A DNA stretch of 64,000 nt from Acutalibacteraceae bacterium (GTDB taxonomy: Bacteria > Bacillota > Clostridia > Oscillospirales > Acutalibacteraceae), in contig JAZSJQ010000057.1 in NCBI GenBank assembly GCA_045534445.1, positions 24,548 through 88,547 on the forward strand. The letters are read 5' to 3'. The notes under the pieces are model-generated. The model saw only the letters and a list, made by a program, of their open reading frames with translations. It did no database searches and had not been told where the DNA came from. The translations under genes and the position numbers were made by a program. Positions 4,635 to 63,588 of this stretch are shown piece after piece. Numbering within the stretch: the first letter of the stretch is position 1; each line of letters starts with the position of its first letter.

Positions 4635-4815
4635 AAAGAACCGTCGGGCATACCGTCTACAAACAGCATCATTAATTTATATAAAAATAAGTCATACATG
4701 ATTTACTTATATATTAATTTGCCGAAATTGATATACACACCAAATATTTCTTTACAACATCACTTTACCGTGCTAAAATTACATCACATTATTTATTACT
4801 TTGGAGGGTACACAT

Positions 4816-5616
4816 ATGAAAAAGATCATCGCATTACTTCTCGCAGTTCTTATGATCGTCGGCATCACCGCTTGCGGCAAGAATGACGGCACTGACCTTG
4901 AAAACGTCAAGGAAAAGGGCACTTTAATTGTCGGTATCACCGACTTTGCTCCCATGGACTACAAGGTTGCAGGCAACGATGAGTGGGTCGGCTTTGACGC
5001 TGACATGGCTAAGCTTTTTGCTGAATACCTCGGTGTTGATGTTCAGTTCGTTGAGATCACATGGGGTCAGAAGGTCAATGAGCTTAACAGTAAGTCCATC
5101 GACTGTGTATGGAACGGAATGACTCTCAACGATGAGGTCAAAGCTGCTATGAGCACCTCTGTTCCCTATTGCCTCAATGCTCAGGTTCTTGTTGTTCCTG
5201 CTGACAAGGCTGCAGACTTTGAGAATCTTACTGATCTCAACGGTATCAACGTTGCTGTTGAAAGCGGTTCCGCAGGCGAAGACGCTGCTCTTGCTCTCGG
5301 TGCTAAGACCGTTGCTGTTGAAAAGCAGTCTGACGCTCTTATGGAGGTTGCTGCAGGCACTTCCGATGCTGCTGTTATCGATCTTCTCATGGCAGGCGCT
5401 ATGATCGGCGAAGGCACTAACTATAACAATCTTGTTTGGGTCCTCAATCTCAACGATCTCCAGAATCTTGAGTCCGAGATGTACGGCGTTGGTTTCCGCA
5501 AGGATTCTGACCTTACCGAGAAGTTCAACACCTTCTGGAGCGAGAAGGTTGCAGACGGCACCGTTCTTGAGGTTGCAAAAACCTATGGTGTTCAGGAATC
5601 TGTTATACTTGACTAA
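4816..5616 (+). CDS. Amino acid ABC transporter substrate-binding lipoprotein (family 3 SBP)
   Basis: MKKIIALLLAVLMIVGITACGKND is a signal peptide with a lipobox, followed by an SBP_bac_3-like body. A GGAGGG RBS lies 7 nt upstream of the ATG at 4816. Confidence 0.9.
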   Translation: MKKIIALLLAVLMIVGITACGKNDGTDLENVKEKGTLIVGITDFAPMDYKVAGNDEWVGFDADMAKLFAEYLGVDVQFVEITWGQKVNELNSKSIDCVWNGMTLNDEVKAAMSTSVPYCLNAQVLVVPADKAADFENLTDLNGINVAVESGSAGEDAALALGAKTVAVEKQSDALMEVAAGTSDAAVIDLLMAGAMIGEGTNYNNLVWVLNLNDLQNLESEMYGVGFRKDSDLTEKFNTFWSEKVADGTVLEVAKTYGVQESVILD

Positions 5617-5640
5617 GCAAACAGTTTTTTCTTAATATGA

Positions 5641-5665
5641 CAGAGGGCGGCAAAACCGCCCTCTG
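5641..5665 (+). terminator. Hairpin between the SBP and permease genes (partial terminator or stabiliser)
   Basis: CAGAGGGCGG-CAAAA-CCGCCCTCTG followed by CCTTT. Confidence 0.45.
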
Positions 5666-5714
5666 CCTTTAATAACCTGGTTTTCGGATATCGCTACCTC
5701 AAGGAGGCTATTTT

Positions 5715-6404
5715 ATGAGCTTTTTCTCATCTCTGGAGTTTAAGACTGTTGTCGAAGCTCTCAATCAGGGTTTTCTTGTAACTCTGGAGTTATTCTTTGT
5801 AACACTTATCGGCGCGCTCCCTTTGGGACTTGTCATTTCATTCGGTTCAATGAGCCGGTTTGCACCTTTTCGCTGGTTCACCAAAACACTGGTATGGATC
5901 GTTCGCGGTACTCCCCTTGTTCTGCAGATCATCGCGATCTATTATGTTCCCGGTCTGCTTGGGCTATATATCTGGGGCGGCGGCGAGTCCGGTAGATTTA
6001 CTGCTGTTGCAGTGGCTTTTATAATCAATTACGCTTTCTATTTTTCGGAGATATTCCGCGGCGGTATCCAATCTGTTCCTCAGGGTCAGTATGAAGCAGG
6101 ACAGGTTCTCGGCATGACACGCAGTCAGATATTTTTCAAGATAACTCTGCTTCAGATGATAAAGCGTATAGTTCCCCCTGTATCAAATGAGATCATCACT
6201 CTTGTAAAGGATACCTCTCTCGCCCGTGTTATTGCCCTTCAGGAGGTAATATGGATGGGCGAAGCATTTTTGAGGGGTTATCAGGGCTTCGCAGGTCTCG
6301 TTTGGCCTCTCTTCTTCACCGCTGTATACTACCTCGCATTCAGTGGAATCGTAACCATTCTTCTCAATCTCCTTGAGAAGAAACTCGATTATTTCCGTGC
6401 TTAA
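5715..6404 (+). CDS. Amino acid ABC transporter permease (His/Glu/Gln/Arg/opine family)
   Basis: Multi-TM protein with an EAA-like loop ...MTRSQIFFKITLLQMIKRIVPPVSNEIITLVKDTSLA... Confidence 0.9.
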   Translation: MSFFSSLEFKTVVEALNQGFLVTLELFFVTLIGALPLGLVISFGSMSRFAPFRWFTKTLVWIVRGTPLVLQIIAIYYVPGLLGLYIWGGGESGRFTAVAVAFIINYAFYFSEIFRGGIQSVPQGQYEAGQVLGMTRSQIFFKITLLQMIKRIVPPVSNEIITLVKDTSLARVIALQEVIWMGEAFLRGYQGFAGLVWPLFFTAVYYLAFSGIVTILLNLLEKKLDYFRA

Positions 6405-6416
6405 GGAGGAATTACT

Positions 6417-7202
6417 GTGGCTATTCTAAGTGTTAAAAACATCAGCAAATCCTTCGGAAGCACCAAGGTGCTTGAGGATGTCAATTTTGACCTCAATGCA
6501 GGCGAAACTATTGCTATTATAGGCTCTTCAGGCTCAGGAAAGACCACTCTTCTCCGTTGTCTTAATTTCCTCGAAACTCCCGACACCGGCACTGTCTCAA
6601 TTGCCGATGAGGTCATCATCGATTGCGATGATACCACCAAACCGAGCGAAGCTGTTATTCGTAGCCGACGCTCTCATTTCGGTCTGGTATTCCAGTCATT
6701 CAACCTCTTCCCCCAGTACACCGCTCTGAAAAACGTTACTCTTGCAAAGGAGCTGCTTGCCAAGGAGCGACCTGATTTCAAGGCTAACCGCAAGGAGATT
6801 CTTAAAGAAATCGAAGAAGAAGGTCTGGAGCTTCTCTCAAAAATGGGACTTGCTGACAGAGCAGGACATTATCCCCATCAGCTCTCAGGCGGTCAGCAGC
6901 AGCGTGTTGCCATCGCCCGTGCGCTGGCTCTTCATCCCGATATACTCTGCTTTGACGAACCCACCTCCGCTCTTGACCCCGAGCTTACAGGCGAAGTGCT
7001 CAAGGTAATACGTTCTCTCGCAGACCAGAAGACCACCATGATAATCGTAACTCACGAAATGGCTTTTGCCCGTGATGTTGCAGACCGTGTTATATTCATG
7101 GACGAAGGTGTTATCGTCGAGCAGGGTCCTGCACAGCAGGTTATTGAAAACCCGCAGAACGAGCGCACAAAGCACTTCCTTGCCCGTTATAACGAGCAGT
7201 AA
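6417..7202 (+). CDS. Amino acid ABC transporter ATP-binding protein
   Basis: Walker A GSSGSGKTT, signature LSGGQQQRVAIARAL, Walker B ILCFDEPTSALD. Confidence 0.95.
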   Translation: MAILSVKNISKSFGSTKVLEDVNFDLNAGETIAIIGSSGSGKTTLLRCLNFLETPDTGTVSIADEVIIDCDDTTKPSEAVIRSRRSHFGLVFQSFNLFPQYTALKNVTLAKELLAKERPDFKANRKEILKEIEEEGLELLSKMGLADRAGHYPHQLSGGQQQRVAIARALALHPDILCFDEPTSALDPELTGEVLKVIRSLADQKTTMIIVTHEMAFARDVADRVIFMDEGVIVEQGPAQQVIENPQNERTKHFLARYNEQ

Positions 7203-7208
7203 GATATC

Positions 7209-7241
7209 AAAAACAGCAGGAGTAAACTCCTGCTGTTTTTT
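7209..7241. terminator. Bidirectional intrinsic terminator between convergent genes
   Basis: ACAGCAGGAG-TAAA-CTCCTGCTGT flanked by an A-run and a T-run. It lies between the stops at 7202 (+) and 7245 (-). Confidence 0.85.
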
Positions 7242-7244
7242 AAT

Positions 7245-9239
7245 TTATTTTGCGTTTCTTTTGAATACTGCGGCTGTTCTGGAAGGCAGATAGCATTGGA
7301 AGCCAATCTGTCCGTTTTCGTTTTTGACTGCTGTGTATTCATAATTCATATCGGTACGGTCAAAGCCGCCGAAAACACTGCTGTCAGTAGAAAGCACCGC
7401 CTTGTACTTTCCTTCCGCCGGAGCTGTTACAAAGTATCCCTCAAAAGATCTTGTGGGATTGAAGTTGAATGCGAAAATGTAATCGCCCTTAGAGTAAATT
7501 ATAATCTTATCATCGTTATGAATATAGCCGTACTGTGCCTTTTCTGAAATCAGATCGCCCTCTTTAAGGAGCGTTATCATAGCTTTATCAAAGGCGCGGA
7601 GCTGTCCGTATCTGAGATTGTCATCATCAGCAAGGCTCCACTGTCTGCGGCAGTAATGATAGCTCCAGCCATTTCCTTCACGGGGGAAATCTATCCACTC
7701 GGGGTGACCGAATTCGTTGCCCATGAAGTTGAGATAGCCCTCTCCTGCCAGTGATGCCGTTATAATGCGTATCATCTTGTGAAGCGCCATGCCTCTGTCG
7801 ATAACAGCATTATTGCTGTTTTTGCACATTCCTGTGTACATATCTGCATCGCAAAGGCGGAACATGATCGTCTTGTCTCCGACAAGAGCCTGATCGTGAG
7901 ATTCTGAATATCCGATGTTCTTTTCCTCGGGTCTGCGGCTGTTAAGCTCGTACCAAAGCTTGTTCATATCCCAGTTTTCATCGGTATATTCCTTTATCAT
8001 CTTTATCCACAGATCGGGAACACCCATGGAAAGCCTGTAATCAAATCCGATACCGCCGTCGGGAATCTTTATGCACATACCCGGCATACCCGACATATCC
8101 TCGGCTACCGTCAGCGCATTGGGATTGATTGTGTGAATAAGCTCGTTGGCAAGCTGCAGATATGTTATTGCCTCTGTGTCAGTATTGAGAGAAAAGTACA
8201 TACTGTAATTGCAGAATGCACTTCCAAGTCCGTGGTCATGGTACAGCATCGAGGTAACACCGTCAAAACGGAAGCCGTCAAAATGGAATATCTCCATCCA
8301 GTATTTGAGATTTGAAAGCAGGAAGTGCAGGACTTCATTCTTTCCGTAATTGAAAAGCTTTGTGTCCCATGCACTGTGGTGACCTCTGGGTCCGTCATGG
8401 AAGAACTGGTACTGTGTGCCGTCAAACTCATTGAGTCCCTCGCTGGTATTCTTTACCGCATGAGAATGCACTACGTCAAGAAGCACCGTAATTCCCATGC
8501 TGTGAGCTGTATCTATAAGCTTCTTCAGGTCACTTCCCTTTCCGTAACGGGATGATGCAGCAAAGAAATTCGACACCTGATAGCCAAAGGATCCGTAATA
8601 AGGATGCTCCATTATTGCCATTATCTGAATGGTATTATAGCCAAGATCCTTTATTTTCGGCAGTATATCGCGGGTAAACGCCTCATAAGTGCCGACGCTG
8701 TATCCCTCATGAGCCATGCCGATATGACATTCATAGATATACGGTGTTTTGCAAGGCTTGAAGTTCTTGTCCGTCCACTTGAATTCATCGAAAAGTATAT
8801 CATCAACCTCAGCACACCAGAGATGGGTGTTTTCATCCTGAACCACTCTTGTTGCATAGGTAGGAATACGTCTGAGAGTCTGACCGTTATGGATTACGAC
8901 TGCCTGTATCTTCTGCCCTGCTTTAAGCGCTTTGCTGCCCTTTAGCTTTACTTCATAAACACCCCGTCCGAGATCCTTCATGGGGCAGGCATAAAGATCC
9001 CAATTATTGAAATCTCCCGTGAGATACATCTTCTCTGCACCCGGTGCCCATTCACGGTAAACCCAGCCGTCCTTTGTCTTGTGAATACCGAAGTATTCAT
9101 ATCCGTTTGCAAAGTCAACAAGGTTTTTATTGTTTCCGAGAAGCTGAACTCGCTTCTTTTCATAATTGTCCATTCTAAGCTGAAGGTCACTCTCATGCGG
9201 CTTCAGATAAGGATCTATCTCCAATATTTTAAGGCTCAT
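7245..9239 (-). CDS. glgB: 1,4-alpha-glucan branching enzyme (GH13)
   Basis: GH13 catalytic motifs are present (DVVHSH, GFRFDGVTSM, EDMSG, ESHDQ). The start is set at the ATG of MSLKILEIDPYL..., which is preceded by AAGGAG; the ORF-track TTG start overlaps that RBS. Confidence 0.92.
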   Translation of the reverse strand: MSLKILEIDPYLKPHESDLQLRMDNYEKKRVQLLGNNKNLVDFANGYEYFGIHKTKDGWVYREWAPGAEKMYLTGDFNNWDLYACPMKDLGRGVYEVKLKGSKALKAGQKIQAVVIHNGQTLRRIPTYATRVVQDENTHLWCAEVDDILFDEFKWTDKNFKPCKTPYIYECHIGMAHEGYSVGTYEAFTRDILPKIKDLGYNTIQIMAIMEHPYYGSFGYQVSNFFAASSRYGKGSDLKKLIDTAHSMGITVLLDVVHSHAVKNTSEGLNEFDGTQYQFFHDGPRGHHSAWDTKLFNYGKNEVLHFLLSNLKYWMEIFHFDGFRFDGVTSMLYHDHGLGSAFCNYSMYFSLNTDTEAITYLQLANELIHTINPNALTVAEDMSGMPGMCIKIPDGGIGFDYRLSMGVPDLWIKMIKEYTDENWDMNKLWYELNSRRPEEKNIGYSESHDQALVGDKTIMFRLCDADMYTGMCKNSNNAVIDRGMALHKMIRIITASLAGEGYLNFMGNEFGHPEWIDFPREGNGWSYHYCRRQWSLADDDNLRYGQLRAFDKAMITLLKEGDLISEKAQYGYIHNDDKIIIYSKGDYIFAFNFNPTRSFEGYFVTAPAEGKYKAVLSTDSSVFGGFDRTDMNYEYTAVKNENGQIGFQCYLPSRTAAVFKRNAK

Positions 9240-11571: not shown

Positions 11572-11614
11572 TTGATTATTGACTATGCATTTGCTATACT
11601 GATTTTACAGTATA
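11572..11614 (+). promoter_or_regulatory. Putative promoter of the RyR gene pair, with a palindrome overlapping the -10
   Basis: TTGATT (11572-11577), 17-nt spacer, TATACT (11595-11600). The inverted repeat TATACTG-N6-CAGTATA spans 11595-11614. A GGAGGG RBS lies 7 nt before the TTG start. Confidence 0.5.
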
Positions 11615-11632
11615 GTATTGGAGGGATAACAA

Positions 11633-14101
11633 TTGGACAGAAAAAACGATTATACTCCTGCACCTATGGACACCTCAAAAGTCAGATTTCCCAATGAGCT
11701 TAATGATCTTATAGACGACCTCGCCCAAAACGCCCATGAGGTCTGGGCAGAGGGACGAATGGCAGAGGGCAAGTCTTTTGGCAAGTCTAACGATACCGTC
11801 AAAGGCAAAAATACTTTCCTCAAGCCCTATGATGCCATGAATCCTGCTGAAAAGCTGTATGACATCAATTCTGTGGAACAGACGATTAAATTCATCTTAA
11901 AAAACGGATATAAAATTGAAAATATCGACAAATCATACTGGGATGGTATTGAGCGCCAATATTTCAAAAAGTATCATAGCGATAAGGCGGTGCCGATTTA
12001 TAAGGCTCCTCTTATTATCGGTCTTGTATCGGACACCTGCGCAGATACAGATGTCAGGGAAATTCATAAGAGTATTGATGAATTTGCCGCTTATATCACA
12101 AAGCACCTCGGCATTCCATGTGAAAAGTGTGAAAACAGCAAAAGAGAAACTCCTGTTTACATAATTTCAGAGCTTGCCAACAATATCGAGCATTGCGCTT
12201 CAGAATATGCATTTAAAAACTACGGCTTTGAGATTATCACAATCAATAATCCTCAGTCGGGATACAAAAACATCAGTATTCCCTGCCCTGCTGTAGATTA
12301 CATAACGTCCAAAAACTTCATGCTTCTTTCCTTCTGGAAAGGCTTGGACAAACACAGCCGCGCAGGCACTGCAGTAAGAAAAACTCTGCTCGAATATGAC
12401 CGCACCAGTCCCGATCCTCAGCGCACGGTAATAGGAGATTCACATGCTGTTTACCATGTTGTTCTCCCCGGCGACGCACCCACTTCCTTTTACTGGAAAA
12501 ACAGACTTCTTCTGCCCTATATACTTGAGTCCGGCGACAACTGGTACACACTCAGAGATGCTCAGATTATCTATGATCGTGACAGCCGACAGAAGATCAT
12601 TATGGGACAGACTGCGGCAACTCTCGCAAACGGCTCGATAAAAGAAATTGTACGCAAAGAGAAAAGGACGCTCAAGCAGCAATATAAAGCTGACAGAAAA
12701 GCTCTTGATGCTCAATACAACAGTATATCCGACAAAAAGCTTATTGCCGAGAGTGCAAACAGAGTCCTTTCAAAAAAAGAAAAAGCCACTATCATAAGGC
12801 TTCTAAAGAAAGATAAAAAGAACTATATAGATGCAAAGAAAAAGCTTCGTGAAAAGTATTCAAAAGACTTGATAGCAGCCGGAAATAAAGAGAAATACAA
12901 CAAAGCCCTCGAAAAATCCAAGAAAGAACGTCATGAGCTGAATCTAAGTATGTTCGGCTATATAAACCGCTCTATCAAAAAAGGCAGCACTCGCAAACCC
13001 TCAGACGAATTTGATCTGCTCACTGATGACACCCACGGCAAAAGCCTATGTGCGGATGTCTCAAATCTCCGTCATCTGCGCCTTGATACTATTGCGACTA
13101 CTTTCCAGAATGCCAAGAAAAAGCAGACAACTTCAGTTGCATTTCTTGCCGCAATAGGACTCGCTGCCTACGGAATATTCTCGGATCTTGCCTCAGCACG
13201 TTCTCTTCTGGGAATTATCGGCGGCACTGTTTCAGCTCTTACAATTATCGCCGCACTTGTGATCTTTATTATAAGTCAGCATAAGAATTATCACAGTGTC
13301 CACTTGAATCTCCGTCTACTCTCTGAAATGCTGAGAGTAAAGACATATCTCAATGCCGCGGGCATTTATGATTCTGATGTTGCTGATATGCTCAGCGAGC
13401 GTCAGCAGCTGGAACTTGAATGGGCAAAGTATATATGCCGCGGCTGGGACATTATCGATACCGCAGAAGGTTATTATGAACCCTCTGCACAAAAGCCGAT
13501 TTCACTTGATGTCATACGCAGAAAATGGATAGGATCCGCCGACAATCTCCTTGACGGACACAGCAACGCAAAGGTTTATAACCCCTCTTCTGACAAGGCT
13601 CAGATGGATTATGACAGAGGACGAGGCAGTGAATACTTCAAAAAAGCACGAAATCTTTCTATTTTCAAAAGCTTTGCTTCTGTTTTTGCAGTTGTTACAA
13701 CACTCGGAGTTACTATAACCGCTGCAATCATGTTCTTTATCAATTCCGGTCTGACCGTGCCCGAAAGCTGGCAGGCGCTTTTCAACGATCAGTTTGATAT
13801 GAGCGCTCGCTATAACTTCTGGGAAGCACTGTTCGTTTTTCTTGCAGGTATCATACCTGCCGTTATAGGTTGTTTTCTTATTTTCCACGAGAGTCAGATG
13901 TATTCCGAAAACGCTCTGCGTTATAAATGGATGGCGGTAAAATATCAGAAGCTCACCGCTTGCATTGACAGTACACTTGCTGCTTCCGATTCCGATGAAG
14001 CAGTTCGCAAGATATTTAAGGATGCCGCTCGTGCCGCAGTTGAAGAAATTGGTGAATGGACTCTTCTGACCGCAGGCAACGAAGCTGCTCTGCCGTTCTA
14101 A
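11633..14101 (+). CDS. 822-aa multidomain membrane protein: RyR domain, Rossmann-like core, K/E coiled coil and two SLATT-like 2TM modules
   Basis: aa 7-97 resemble the RyR repeat (DLAQNAHEVWAEGR...LKPYDAMNPAEKLYDINSVEQTIKFILKNGYKIE). The protein has four TM helices, at about aa 500-517, 524-548, 676-704 and 728-751. It uses a TTG start. See findings. Confidence 0.7.
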   Translation: MDRKNDYTPAPMDTSKVRFPNELNDLIDDLAQNAHEVWAEGRMAEGKSFGKSNDTVKGKNTFLKPYDAMNPAEKLYDINSVEQTIKFILKNGYKIENIDKSYWDGIERQYFKKYHSDKAVPIYKAPLIIGLVSDTCADTDVREIHKSIDEFAAYITKHLGIPCEKCENSKRETPVYIISELANNIEHCASEYAFKNYGFEIITINNPQSGYKNISIPCPAVDYITSKNFMLLSFWKGLDKHSRAGTAVRKTLLEYDRTSPDPQRTVIGDSHAVYHVVLPGDAPTSFYWKNRLLLPYILESGDNWYTLRDAQIIYDRDSRQKIIMGQTAATLANGSIKEIVRKEKRTLKQQYKADRKALDAQYNSISDKKLIAESANRVLSKKEKATIIRLLKKDKKNYIDAKKKLREKYSKDLIAAGNKEKYNKALEKSKKERHELNLSMFGYINRSIKKGSTRKPSDEFDLLTDDTHGKSLCADVSNLRHLRLDTIATTFQNAKKKQTTSVAFLAAIGLAAYGIFSDLASARSLLGIIGGTVSALTIIAALVIFIISQHKNYHSVHLNLRLLSEMLRVKTYLNAAGIYDSDVADMLSERQQLELEWAKYICRGWDIIDTAEGYYEPSAQKPISLDVIRRKWIGSADNLLDGHSNAKVYNPSSDKAQMDYDRGRGSEYFKKARNLSIFKSFASVFAVVTTLGVTITAAIMFFINSGLTVPESWQALFNDQFDMSARYNFWEALFVFLAGIIPAVIGCFLIFHESQMYSENALRYKWMAVKYQKLTACIDSTLAASDSDEAVRKIFKDAARAAVEEIGEWTLLTAGNEAALPF

Positions 14102-14115
14102 AGGAGGAATTTATT

Positions 14116-14403
14116 ATGTACGAAAACTATAAGCCTGCTCCAATAGATACTTCTGATGTATCTCTCCCCGAAAGCCTCAACGACCTTGTTGAATACATGG
14201 CAAAGAATACTCACGAGGTTTGGGCTGCCACAAGAATCAAGCAGGGCTGGACTTACGGTCCTGAGAGAAACGATGAATTAATGCACCACCCCTGCCTTAT
14301 CCCCTATGAGGAGCTTCCCGAAAGCGAAAAGGTCTACGACCGCAACATTTCTCTTGAAACTCTCAAGCTTATAACCAAGCTTGGATATGAAATAAAGAAG
14401 TAA
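14116..14403 (+). CDS. Stand-alone RyR domain protein (95 aa)
   Basis: MYENYKPAPIDTSDVSLPESLNDLVEYMAKNTHEVWAATRIKQGWTYGPERNDELMHHPCLIPYEELPESEKVYDRNISLETLKLITKLGYEI is a canonical RyR repeat. Its AAGGAGG RBS overlaps the stop of the upstream gene. Confidence 0.85.
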   Translation: MYENYKPAPIDTSDVSLPESLNDLVEYMAKNTHEVWAATRIKQGWTYGPERNDELMHHPCLIPYEELPESEKVYDRNISLETLKLITKLGYEIKK

Positions 14404-14407
14404 TTTT

Positions 14408-14441
14408 ACAGCCGACCGTTTCGTTGGAAATGGTCGGCTGT
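14408..14441 (+). terminator. Hairpin after the RyR pair
   Basis: ACAGCCGACC-N14-GGTCGGCTGT. The T-tract is weak. Confidence 0.5.
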
Positions 14442-14529
14442 AATGCTTAAAACGTTGATTTTTTCTAAGTTACGATATATAATTATTAAATACCGCATAA
14501 AAAGTAATTGCTGATCGGAGGCATTGAAT

Positions 14530-33149: not shown

Positions 33150-33290
33150 TGCTTCGCCTTTGGTGAAATATTTTGCCTATCGGCAAAATGTGAAATTAAA
33201 TCCACCCACCGCCGCGACGATTTCACTCAAGCTTTGCTCGAATTTCACATTGCAGAGCAATATTTCTCCCCCCCGAAAGGGTGGATTTAG
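33150..33290. repeat. Structured spacer rich in GTGAAAT/ATTTCAC repeats and nested inverted repeats
   Basis: GTGAAAT at 33163 and 33190; ATTTCAC at 33220 and 33242. ATTTTGCC/GGCAAAAT lie at 33170/33182, TTTGCTC/GAGCAA at 33233/33255, and AAATCCACCC/GGGTGGATTT at 33198/33279. Confidence 0.6.
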
Positions 33291-33291
33291 T

Positions 33292-33326
33292 AAAAAAAGA
33301 CCTTGTCTTTCGACAAGGTCTTTTTT
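33292..33326. terminator. Bidirectional intrinsic terminator downstream of tRNA-Tyr
   Basis: A7-GACCTTGTC-TTTC-GACAAGGTC-T6. Confidence 0.9.
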
Positions 33327-33327
33327 C

Positions 33328-33412
33328 TGGTGGGAGCGGGTGGATTCGAACCACCGAAGTCGTCGACAACAGATTTACAGTCTGCCCCCTTTGGCCACTC
33401 GGGAACACTCCC
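33328..33412 (-). tRNA. tRNA-Tyr (anticodon GUA), long variable arm, CCA encoded
   Basis: The reverse complement GGGAGTGTTCCCGAGTGGCCAAAGGGGGCAGACTGTAAATCTGTTGTCGACGACTTCGGTGGTTCGAATCCACCCGCTCCCACCA folds as a cloverleaf, with anticodon loop CTGTAAA. Confidence 0.93.
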
Positions 33413-33440
33413 ATGTTCCTATTTATTCAATTGCACGATC

Positions 33441-33516
33441 TGGAGCCGGTGGACGGACTCGAACCACCGCTCTGCTCGTCACAAATCAGCTGCTCTACCA
33501 ACTGAGCTACACCGGC
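33441..33516 (-). tRNA. tRNA-Thr-like (anticodon UGU) with non-canonical anticodon arm, CCA encoded
   Basis: The reverse complement is GCCGGTGTAGCTCAGTTGGTAGAGCAGCTGATTTGTGACGAGCAGAGCGGTGGTTCGAGTCCGTCCACCGGCTCCA. The acceptor, D and T arms are canonical, and the anticodon loop is TTTGTGA. The sequence is confirmed by all three overlapping ORF-track translations. Confidence 0.8.
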
Positions 33517-63390: not shown

Positions 63391-63588
63391 GACTTTATGC
63401 CCTTGCTCGCCCCGGATTTCTGGGGGAACAGGCAAGCCGTTAGTGTTTTCATGGCATAGCAACCCTGATATGCTTACTAAAACACTTTTCGCCCGGTTTG
63501 AAATCGGACATACTCCGCGTAAAAACCAGCCCGTAGGCTGCAACCTCACGCATCATCGCAATATGTCTTTGTGCAGTCGTGCTTGCTT

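Follow-up and report, generated by a model that had tools for sequence, protein, structure and literature searches.

The L-S operon is a two-gene cassette on a 64,000-nucleotide stretch of DNA from an Acutalibacteraceae bacterium (assembly GCA_045534445.1, contig JAZSJQ010000057.1, positions 24,548 to 88,547 of the forward strand). This whole stretch is referred to here as the window. The large gene, L, encodes a membrane protein in which a ryanodine receptor (RyR) domain, a SLOG-fold core and two SLATT-like membrane modules are joined. The small gene, S, lies directly downstream and encodes a free RyR domain. The pair is read here as a membrane-disrupting effector gated by a nucleotide signal, together with its regulator, derived from Thoeris-type effectors. 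We hold this reading at even odds, with a probability of about 0.5. What is established at the locus is the identity of the domains, the homology of L to a larger protein family, the linkage of those relatives to TIR genes, and the co-occurrence of L and S. The principal features, numbered from the first position of the window, are the following.

11633-14101, forward strand: large gene L, an 822-residue open reading frame (ORF) with the order RyR, SLOG, basic helix, two SLATT-like two-transmembrane (2TM) modules
11651-11920, forward strand: RyR (R12-type) domain of L, residues 7-96 (PF02026, E=2.1e-25)
11990-12562, forward strand: predicted SLOG-fold domain of L, residues ~120-310, with eroded motifs (AlphaFold2 and Foldseek)
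12635-12988, forward strand: basic helical linker of L, residues 335-452 (AlphaFold2 helix 336-451; composition and heptad test)
13034-13387, forward strand: SLATT-like module 1 of L, residues 468-585, consisting of a helix, transmembrane (TM) segments TM1 (~500-520) and TM2 (~528-548), and a helix with R561/E565/R568
13580-14098, forward strand: SLATT-like module 2 and C-terminal helix of L, residues 650-822, consisting of the Q657 helix, TM3, TM4 and the RYKW helix
14116-14403, forward strand: small gene S, 95 residues, a free single-repeat RyR-domain protein (Pfam RyR, E=4.7e-36)

The RyR domain of L is the sole Pfam match in the protein. It scores 89.2 bits against PF02026 (cut-off 27.4), so that the RyR repeat placed at residues 7-97 by the first-pass annotation stands, while its description as divergent was wrong. 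The same domain matches RyR repeats in the PDB with E-values of ~1e-35 to 1e-39. S, which had been mentioned only as a small partner gene, is a genuine gene with a score of 123.4 bits against PF02026. Its match to vertebrate RyR1, RyR2 and RyR3, with all repeats summed, reaches E~1e-63, and a free RyR protein from Bacteroides thetaiotaomicron (PDB 3nrt) is matched at E=3e-32. This similarity of S to the animal receptors is unusually high for a 90-residue bacterial domain. S retains 86%, 72% and 64% identity to its homologues where L shows 61%, 39% and 31%. Free RyR genes that are 62-66% identical to S are also found on L010 (5995-6288) and L011, two human-faecal scaffolds (MT837259.1, MT836850.1) that were deposited as 'UNVERIFIED: Bacteriophage sp.' and whose flanking ORFs look bacterial or mobile-element-like. 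No L gene is present on either scaffold.

TIR enzymes produce isomers of cyclic ADP-ribose (cADPR) upon infection, and in ThsA such an isomer is sensed by a SLOG domain. Bacterial RyR domains had been described in the first-pass annotation as lacking an assigned function. This is outdated, as phage proteins of the PF02026 family bind or hydrolyse 2'/3'cADPR (PMC13232231; 10.64898/2026.06.04.730250). RyDEP is a phage PF02026 homodimer that cleaves 2'/3'cADPR and contacts it through H75, W78, H100 and D117, and most of its homologues instead sequester 2'/3'cADPR with nM affinity (PMC13232231). Phage RyR Tad binds 3'cADPR (Kd 43 nM), 2'cADPR and cADPR, dimerises via alpha1/alpha4, and possesses equivalent His, Trp, His and Asp residues (10.64898/2026.06.04.730250). 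Single-repeat RyR proteins are alpha1/alpha4 dimers whose affinity for cADPR isomers lies in the nM to uM range (PMC13232231; 10.64898/2026.06.04.730250). Both of these 2026 preprints note an as yet unexplained relationship to R12 of the animal ryanodine receptors, and a host-encoded RyR effector is described in neither (PMC13232231; 10.64898/2026.06.04.730250). The earlier statement that no described system is built around an RyR domain holds, in that no publication was found on a host system of this kind, and none was found that combines RyR domains with SLATT.

The ligand and catalytic positions of RyDEP can be mapped onto both proteins of the cassette. S possesses all four, as H33, W36, H58 and D75, with the spacing of RyDEP (i, +3, +25, +42). 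L keeps H35, W38 and D77, and N60 replaces the second His. This Asn is invariant in 7/7 L proteins, and the same position is occupied by Thr in two of the eight S proteins.

The coordinates of the 822-residue ORF at 11633-14101 and its four-part layout agree with the first-pass annotation, as does the Rossmann/SLOG-type core that it placed at residues ~120-300. An alternating beta/alpha pattern is predicted across these residues in both AlphaFold2 runs. Residues 98-319, modelled on an 18-sequence alignment, gave a predicted local distance difference test (pLDDT) score of 72.6 and a predicted template-modelling score of 0.72, with the core at a pLDDT of 82-96. The best Foldseek matches of this model in the PDB are almost all members of the SLOG superfamily. 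They include the molybdenum cofactor carrier protein (E=6e-4), TM1055, and plant and bacterial LOG proteins, as well as DprA, the N-terminal MHR domain of TRPM, and the SLOG domain of BcThsA bound to 3'cADPR (7uxs). SLOG folds are clearly enriched among the matches of the predicted core. Its motifs are eroded: GLVSD stands for GVTGHR, ELANNIE for LAEGADQ, and FWKG..AGT for LWDG..GGT. In the alignment, the GGT position reads AGT in L and CAD in the homologue P0006. The erosion spans the whole RyR-bearing clade, the TIR-linked protein P0013 included, and L reaches no SLOG-clan model of Pfam or NCBIfam.

Behind the core, residues 335-452 form a charged helical linker. The first-pass annotation had called it a Lys/Glu-rich coiled coil. 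A charged helix is what was found (43% charged residues), though it is strongly basic (28 Lys and 8 Arg against 9 Glu and 6 Asp, net +21) and its heptads are weak, so that coiled coil applies only loosely. The 118-residue linker is an insertion peculiar to the sub-clade of L and is short or absent in relatives. The AlphaFold2 model of full-length L, built from 6 sequences, has a pLDDT of 49.8, and only secondary structure was taken from it.

The reading of the C-terminal half as two SLATT-like 2TM modules holds. Four TM helices are arranged as two hairpins, and hydropathy shows them in 6/6 close homologues. TM3 and TM4 of module 2 span residues ~683-705 and ~733-752, and the C-terminal helix carries an invariant E805/W809 pair. 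The charges flanking the TM segments fit an N-in/C-in topology, with the RyR domain facing the cytoplasm. Both modules follow the order helix, TM, loop, TM, helix, the two TM segments lying close together between amphipathic helices, which bears out the shared arrangement noted earlier. Their description as two copies goes further than the data, since homology between them was not demonstrated: an in-register alignment for an internal duplication was not significant (hhalign probability 6%). Residues 732-809 match NCBIfam SLATT_1 weakly (E=0.033, 14.1 bits, cut-off 41).

Close homologues of L are few. A word-index search returned six 90%-identity clusters that align over the full length, at 31-100% identity to L. 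Omission of the RyR domain and an exhaustive profile search extended the family to 873 representative clusters at E<=1e-3, mostly of 560-700 residues. The profile of the RyR clade (6 sequences) aligns to that of 20 members of this larger, canonical family with an hhalign probability of 100% (E=5.2e-41, 524 columns), and the alignment takes in the SLOG domain, both membrane modules and the C-terminal helix. The R561/E565/R568 helix after TM2, Q657, and E805..W809 are invariant in L and the canonical members. The latter keep the textbook SLOG motifs GVTGHR, LSxLAEGADQ and ALWDG..GGT. Word-index queries that contained the linker, whether the full protein or a 25-sequence alignment, recovered the same six close homologues only, and a C-terminal-only alignment recovered 13 canonical members and none of the RyR clade. 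A guess is that low-complexity words from the linker crowd out true relatives in such a search.

The relatives also supply the link to named families. SLATT-clan Pfam models match them, with DUF4231 in 31/76 and 16/20 relatives, plus SLATT_1, SLATT_3 and SLATT_5. These matches are mostly below threshold, and P0019 reaches 26.3 bits against a threshold of 24.7. They fall on module 1 in some relatives and on module 2 in others: DUF4231 and SLATT_3 on module 1, and SLATT_5 and SLATT_1 on module 2 in P0020. SLOG-clan models (YAcAr, YpsA, DprA) are matched as well, each of them weakly. PADLOC v2 applied to ten relatives gave a weak match to ShosA (SLOG) only, and when the profile of the canonical family was searched against PDB sequences, no relative with a solved structure was found. 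The upstream neighbours of two relatives, P0167 and P0017, were considered as paralogues of L, and comparison showed that neither is one.

Canonical members adjoin TIR genes, mostly of the TIR-TPR kind and some nSTAND1. Their context was sampled in 80 further metagenomic loci, with at least 489 relatives detected in environmental metagenomes, where the family is abundant. Among 29 neighbour proteins scanned with Pfam, 19 carry TIR_2 and 15 carry ThsB_TIR. A TIR hidden Markov model (HMM) finds a TIR ORF in 37/85 canonical loci, and in 13/18 of those flanked by 3 kb or more on each side. With such neighbours, the canonical family fits the effector role in a Thoeris-type system of two genes, and it may represent an under-described Thoeris type. 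The linkage reaches the RyR clade at locus L012, where a TIR_2 gene (44.1 bits), an L gene (P0013, 34% identical) and an S gene lie on one strand. The idea of a membrane effector gated by a ligand or partner, already voiced in the first-pass annotation, gains support from this operon and from the homology of L to the TIR-adjacent family. The TIR protein of L012 (172-1635) is composed of TIR_2, a hydrophobic segment and DUF6273, unlike the TIR-TPR partners of canonical relatives.

S lies directly downstream of L in all eight RyR-bearing loci examined, as follows.

Window locus: L identity 100%, S downstream
L004: L identity to the window 61%, S downstream
L001: L identity 39%, S downstream
L002/L003: L identity 31%, S downstream
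L012: L identity 34%, S downstream
L013: L identity 25%, S downstream
L094: L identity 30%, S downstream
L095: L truncated by the end of the contig, S downstream

RyR ORFs are absent from the canonical loci (0/85 loci, 600 kb in total). A relative without its own RyR domain, P0021 (598 residues, eroded SLOG motifs), has an RyR gene 14 nt downstream. This gene (L098 3139-3264, L099 2247-2372) begins with an RyR domain (MKKIENRYTPKPIDTSDV...NSHDVWAKG) and is cut by the contig end. Because the RyR domain is separate at P0021 and fused in L, it appears to be functionally linked to the L core in the Rosetta-stone sense. At L001, the locus of P0005, the cassette is followed at 4704-7866 by an AAA+/AAA_lid_6 protein and a WYL-WCX regulator. 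AAA+ and WYL-type genes are common in defence neighbourhoods, and L001 is the sole cassette locus with this flavour.

Several described systems resemble the cassette in part. The canonical TIR-linked family (P0160-P0172 type, ~570 residues) shares with L the SLOG domain, both 2TM modules and the C-terminal helix. Its members have intact SLOG motifs, no RyR domain or partner, and usually a TIR neighbour, whereas L has an eroded SLOG domain, an N-terminal RyR domain, the 118-residue helix insertion, S as a partner, and no TIR gene at the window. Fusions of SLOG to SLATT were reportedly predicted computationally by Burroughs et al. in 2015. ThsH is the SLATT effector of type VII Thoeris and is activated by canonical cADPR, and SLATT effectors are presumed to oligomerise and breach the membrane (bioRxiv 10.64898/2025.12.03.692087). 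Like L, ThsH is a SLATT-type membrane effector with a link to cyclic ADP-ribose signalling by TIR enzymes. Compared by description, it differs in having a SLATT annotation only and being TIR-paired, while L has two 2TM modules, a SLOG domain and an RyR domain, and is accompanied by an additional RyR gene with no TIR next to it. ThsA of type I Thoeris is a SIR2-SLOG protein activated by 3'cADPR, and 7uxs is among the Foldseek matches of the sensor-like SLOG fold of L, though that match is weak (E=2e-2), the motifs of L are eroded, and a membrane module takes the place of the SIR2 effector.

RyDEP and RyR Tad resemble S, itself a PF02026 protein of one repeat in which the His, Trp, His and Asp stand at equivalent positions and distances, and L, which keeps the His, Trp and Asp. 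They are phage-encoded anti-defence factors, whereas the RyR domains described here are encoded on a host chromosome, either fused to a Thoeris-type effector or in the same operon as one. This placement points to RyR as a receptor or regulator on the side of defence. The R12 domain of animal RyRs, like the B. thetaiotaomicron RyR protein (3nrt, 6uag), shows strong sequence similarity to these domains, and in the animal receptors, as in L, an R12-type domain is attached to a membrane-permeability protein. The animal RyRs differ in carrying tandem repeats within a 5000-residue Ca2+ channel, against one repeat on the four-TM protein L and one on S, and the membrane parts of the two are non-homologous.

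The identity of the ligand, its gating of L, the ensuing membrane damage and a role in defence are proposed on this footing. In the RyR branch, the SLOG pocket would have decayed, and the RyR domain would have taken over, or joined in, the perception of the signal. An ADP-ribose-derived or other adenine nucleotide would bind the RyR module, and L would be released or reorganised. The SLATT hairpins would then assemble, resulting in depolarisation of the membrane and arrest of growth (abortive infection). S could contribute in one of two ways. By buffering or hydrolysing low levels of the signal, it may impose a threshold. Alternatively, S and the single repeat of L may combine into a two-repeat, R12-like unit that keeps L inactive before the ligand arrives. 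At the window, the signal could come from an enzyme encoded elsewhere, a TIR or another, or could be an endogenous or phage-derived nucleotide. A more specific proposal is that the RyR/R12 domain is the native bacterial receptor for TIR-made cADPR isomers and gates an immune effector that permeabilises the membrane. L and S would then form a hetero-R12 unit, and the ligand would switch the SLATT part from a closed to a pore-forming state. This proposal is tentative, and we consider it somewhat unlikely.

The cassette has the layout of an operon, and its expression signals and RNA structure are listed below.

11572-11600, forward strand: promoter-like site, TTGATT, 17-nt spacer and TG-TATACT (9/12 in a consensus scan, with an extended -10 TG; a consensus match alone)
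11620-11635, forward strand: Shine-Dalgarno sequence GGAGGG, 7 nt upstream of the TTG start of L (read from sequence)
14102-14118, forward strand: Shine-Dalgarno sequence AGGAGG and ATG of S at the operon junction (read from sequence)
14398-14448, forward strand: stem-loop immediately behind the stop codon of S (folding energy -31.9 kcal/mol, z=-7.9)

The N-terminus MD..N.Y.P.P.DT is common to the L homologues in the alignment, and this conservation supports the TTG start. The gap between the L stop and the S start is 14 nt. A promoter and a terminator had been assigned to the cassette in the first-pass annotation. The promoter-like site and a strong hairpin are present, and the consensus terminator scan called no canonical intrinsic terminator after S, where a T-run lies ~20 nt beyond the stem-loop. 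The stem-loop is the probable end of the transcript. The G+C content of the cassette is 43.4%, compared with 46.6% for the whole window.

The neighbours are unrelated housekeeping genes, as had been recognised. A Pfam scan identifies an amidohydrolase and DUF3737 upstream, and a large upstream ORF is presumably a glycogen-branching enzyme. Downstream, translations indicate NuoE/NuoF-like and Fe-S flavoprotein genes. Elsewhere in the window, the S10-Clostridia ribosomal-protein leader (RF03136) lies at 63486-63564 on the reverse strand, and a Gut-1 RNA (RF01706, 55.4 bits), at 33215-33516 on the same strand, directly adjoins two tRNA genes. Gut-1 RNA has no assigned function. With tRNAs, the S10 leader and the housekeeping neighbours, the window belongs to the core chromosome of a Clostridia bacterium from the gut.

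Several observations weigh against the reading of the operon as a nucleotide-gated defence effector. The cassette is set among housekeeping genes, with no defence island around it. In three increasingly divergent genomes the same DUF3737 gene is its immediate or close neighbour, and this linkage likewise counts against a defence role. No TIR was found in the 64-kb window, L001, L002, L004 or L013 with phmmer searches of four TIR proteins and the TIR HMM; the HMM, built from 25 sequences, gave a best E of 0.23 in the window and cassette loci versus 5e-44 to 4e-20 on controls, and it missed the DUF4062-type TIR-like domain of L006, so that very divergent TIR-like domains could escape it. The neighbours of L094, L095 and L098 include no TIR. 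In all, TIR is present in only one of about five RyR-clade loci with a usable upstream flank, and since the window contains no signal-generating gene, a defence role at the window is something that we infer. L and S match no model of PADLOC-DB v2, as the first-pass annotation had anticipated. Foldseek E-values for the SLOG core are modest (6e-4 to 5e-2), with template-modelling scores of 0.3-0.5. L itself lies below the threshold of every SLATT and SLOG model, SLATT_1 being the best, and the SLATT and SLOG assignments therefore rest on transitive homology and predicted structure. Lastly, P0017 has eroded SLOG motifs yet no RyR partner, so the correlation in which RyR replaces SLOG is imperfect.

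As most RyR-clade loci lack a signal generator and lie among housekeeping genes, non-immune and guard-type explanations remain live. In the first of these, L is a non-immune channel or regulator gated by the ATP, ADP or ADP-ribose of the cell itself, a sensor of metabolic state, and S is its soluble nucleotide-binding subunit. The housekeeping context and the lack of TIR at the window agree with such a role. So do the DUF3737 linkage in three genomes, from which the cassette looks like an inherited, old resident of the lineage, and the conservation of S at the level of a housekeeping protein (86%, 72% and 64% identity). The distribution and evolution of L argue the other way. The RyR clade is extremely rare and patchy, with six 90%-identity clusters among 5.8 billion proteins. 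Clade-specific patterns matched 2 of 185,579 species genomes, both of them Acutalibacteraceae metagenome-assembled genomes, and scans with these patterns found no relatives in IMG/VR or the JGI metagenomes. The inserted accessory cassette of the first-pass annotation is thus right as to rarity, and the shared DUF3737 neighbour in three genomes speaks against a fresh insertion in this lineage. L shows 61% and 25% identity where the neighbouring DUF3737 keeps 80% and 56%, and by these identities L is diverging much faster than its neighbours. Moreover, the closest larger family is TIR-linked, and one relative is in a TIR operon (L012). A metabolic sensor is unlikely.

Alternatively, L and S could be a toxin-antitoxin-like or guard pair, in which S neutralises L through an RyR-RyR heterodimer resembling an R12 pseudo-dimer. 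L would fire once S has been titrated away or displaced, as by the phage sponges RyDEP or RyR Tad, which dimerise via that alpha1/alpha4 face, and a host TIR signal would not be needed. S is found with the RyR or eroded-SLOG branch alone and never at canonical loci, L and S carry one repeat each, and single-repeat RyR proteins are obligate alpha1/alpha4 dimers. The missing TIR of most RyR-clade loci also suits this pairing, and the gene order, with its 14-nt gap, fits co-translation. However, the His and Trp of the ligand contact are retained in both proteins, which favours nucleotide binding over pure protein-protein recognition, and TIR is present in L012. A guard pair is distinctly unlikely on this evidence.

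That the cassette is mobile-element or phage anti-defence cargo, with S as an anti-Thoeris sponge and L as an unrelated membrane protein, is barely credible: phage RyR proteins are anti-Thoeris factors and S is 62-66% identical to the free RyR genes on the 'Bacteriophage' scaffolds, but the genes on those scaffolds are ordinary bacterial ones without an L among them, the clade-specific patterns found no relative of L in IMG/VR, S accompanies L in 8/8 loci, RyR is fused into L, and the flanks of the cassette hold neither phage nor integrase genes. A prophage or anti-defence origin was rejected on this genomic context.

The binding of cADPR by RyR domains has so far been known for phage counter-defence proteins only. 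The locus supplies a host protein that carries an RyR domain on an effector of the TIR-linked SLOG/SLATT family. It also draws attention to that family, which is large (873 representative clusters), couples SLOG to a double SLATT, and is without a PADLOC v2 model. If RyR is the signal receptor, it would be a new class of sensor alongside SLOG, Macro, SAVED and CARF, and the operon would be a likely case of signal buffering, or of the assembly of a two-part receptor, built into Thoeris-type immunity. The sensing of cADPR-like molecules by R12 domains, a long-standing question, could then be tested in a simple bacterial system. If the RyR domain is the native receptor for TIR-made cADPR isomers, phage RyR sponges would be explained as captured copies of a host receptor, and the L-S operon would be a prokaryotic counterpart, possibly a forerunner, of the modulation of animal RyRs by nucleotides and cADPR.

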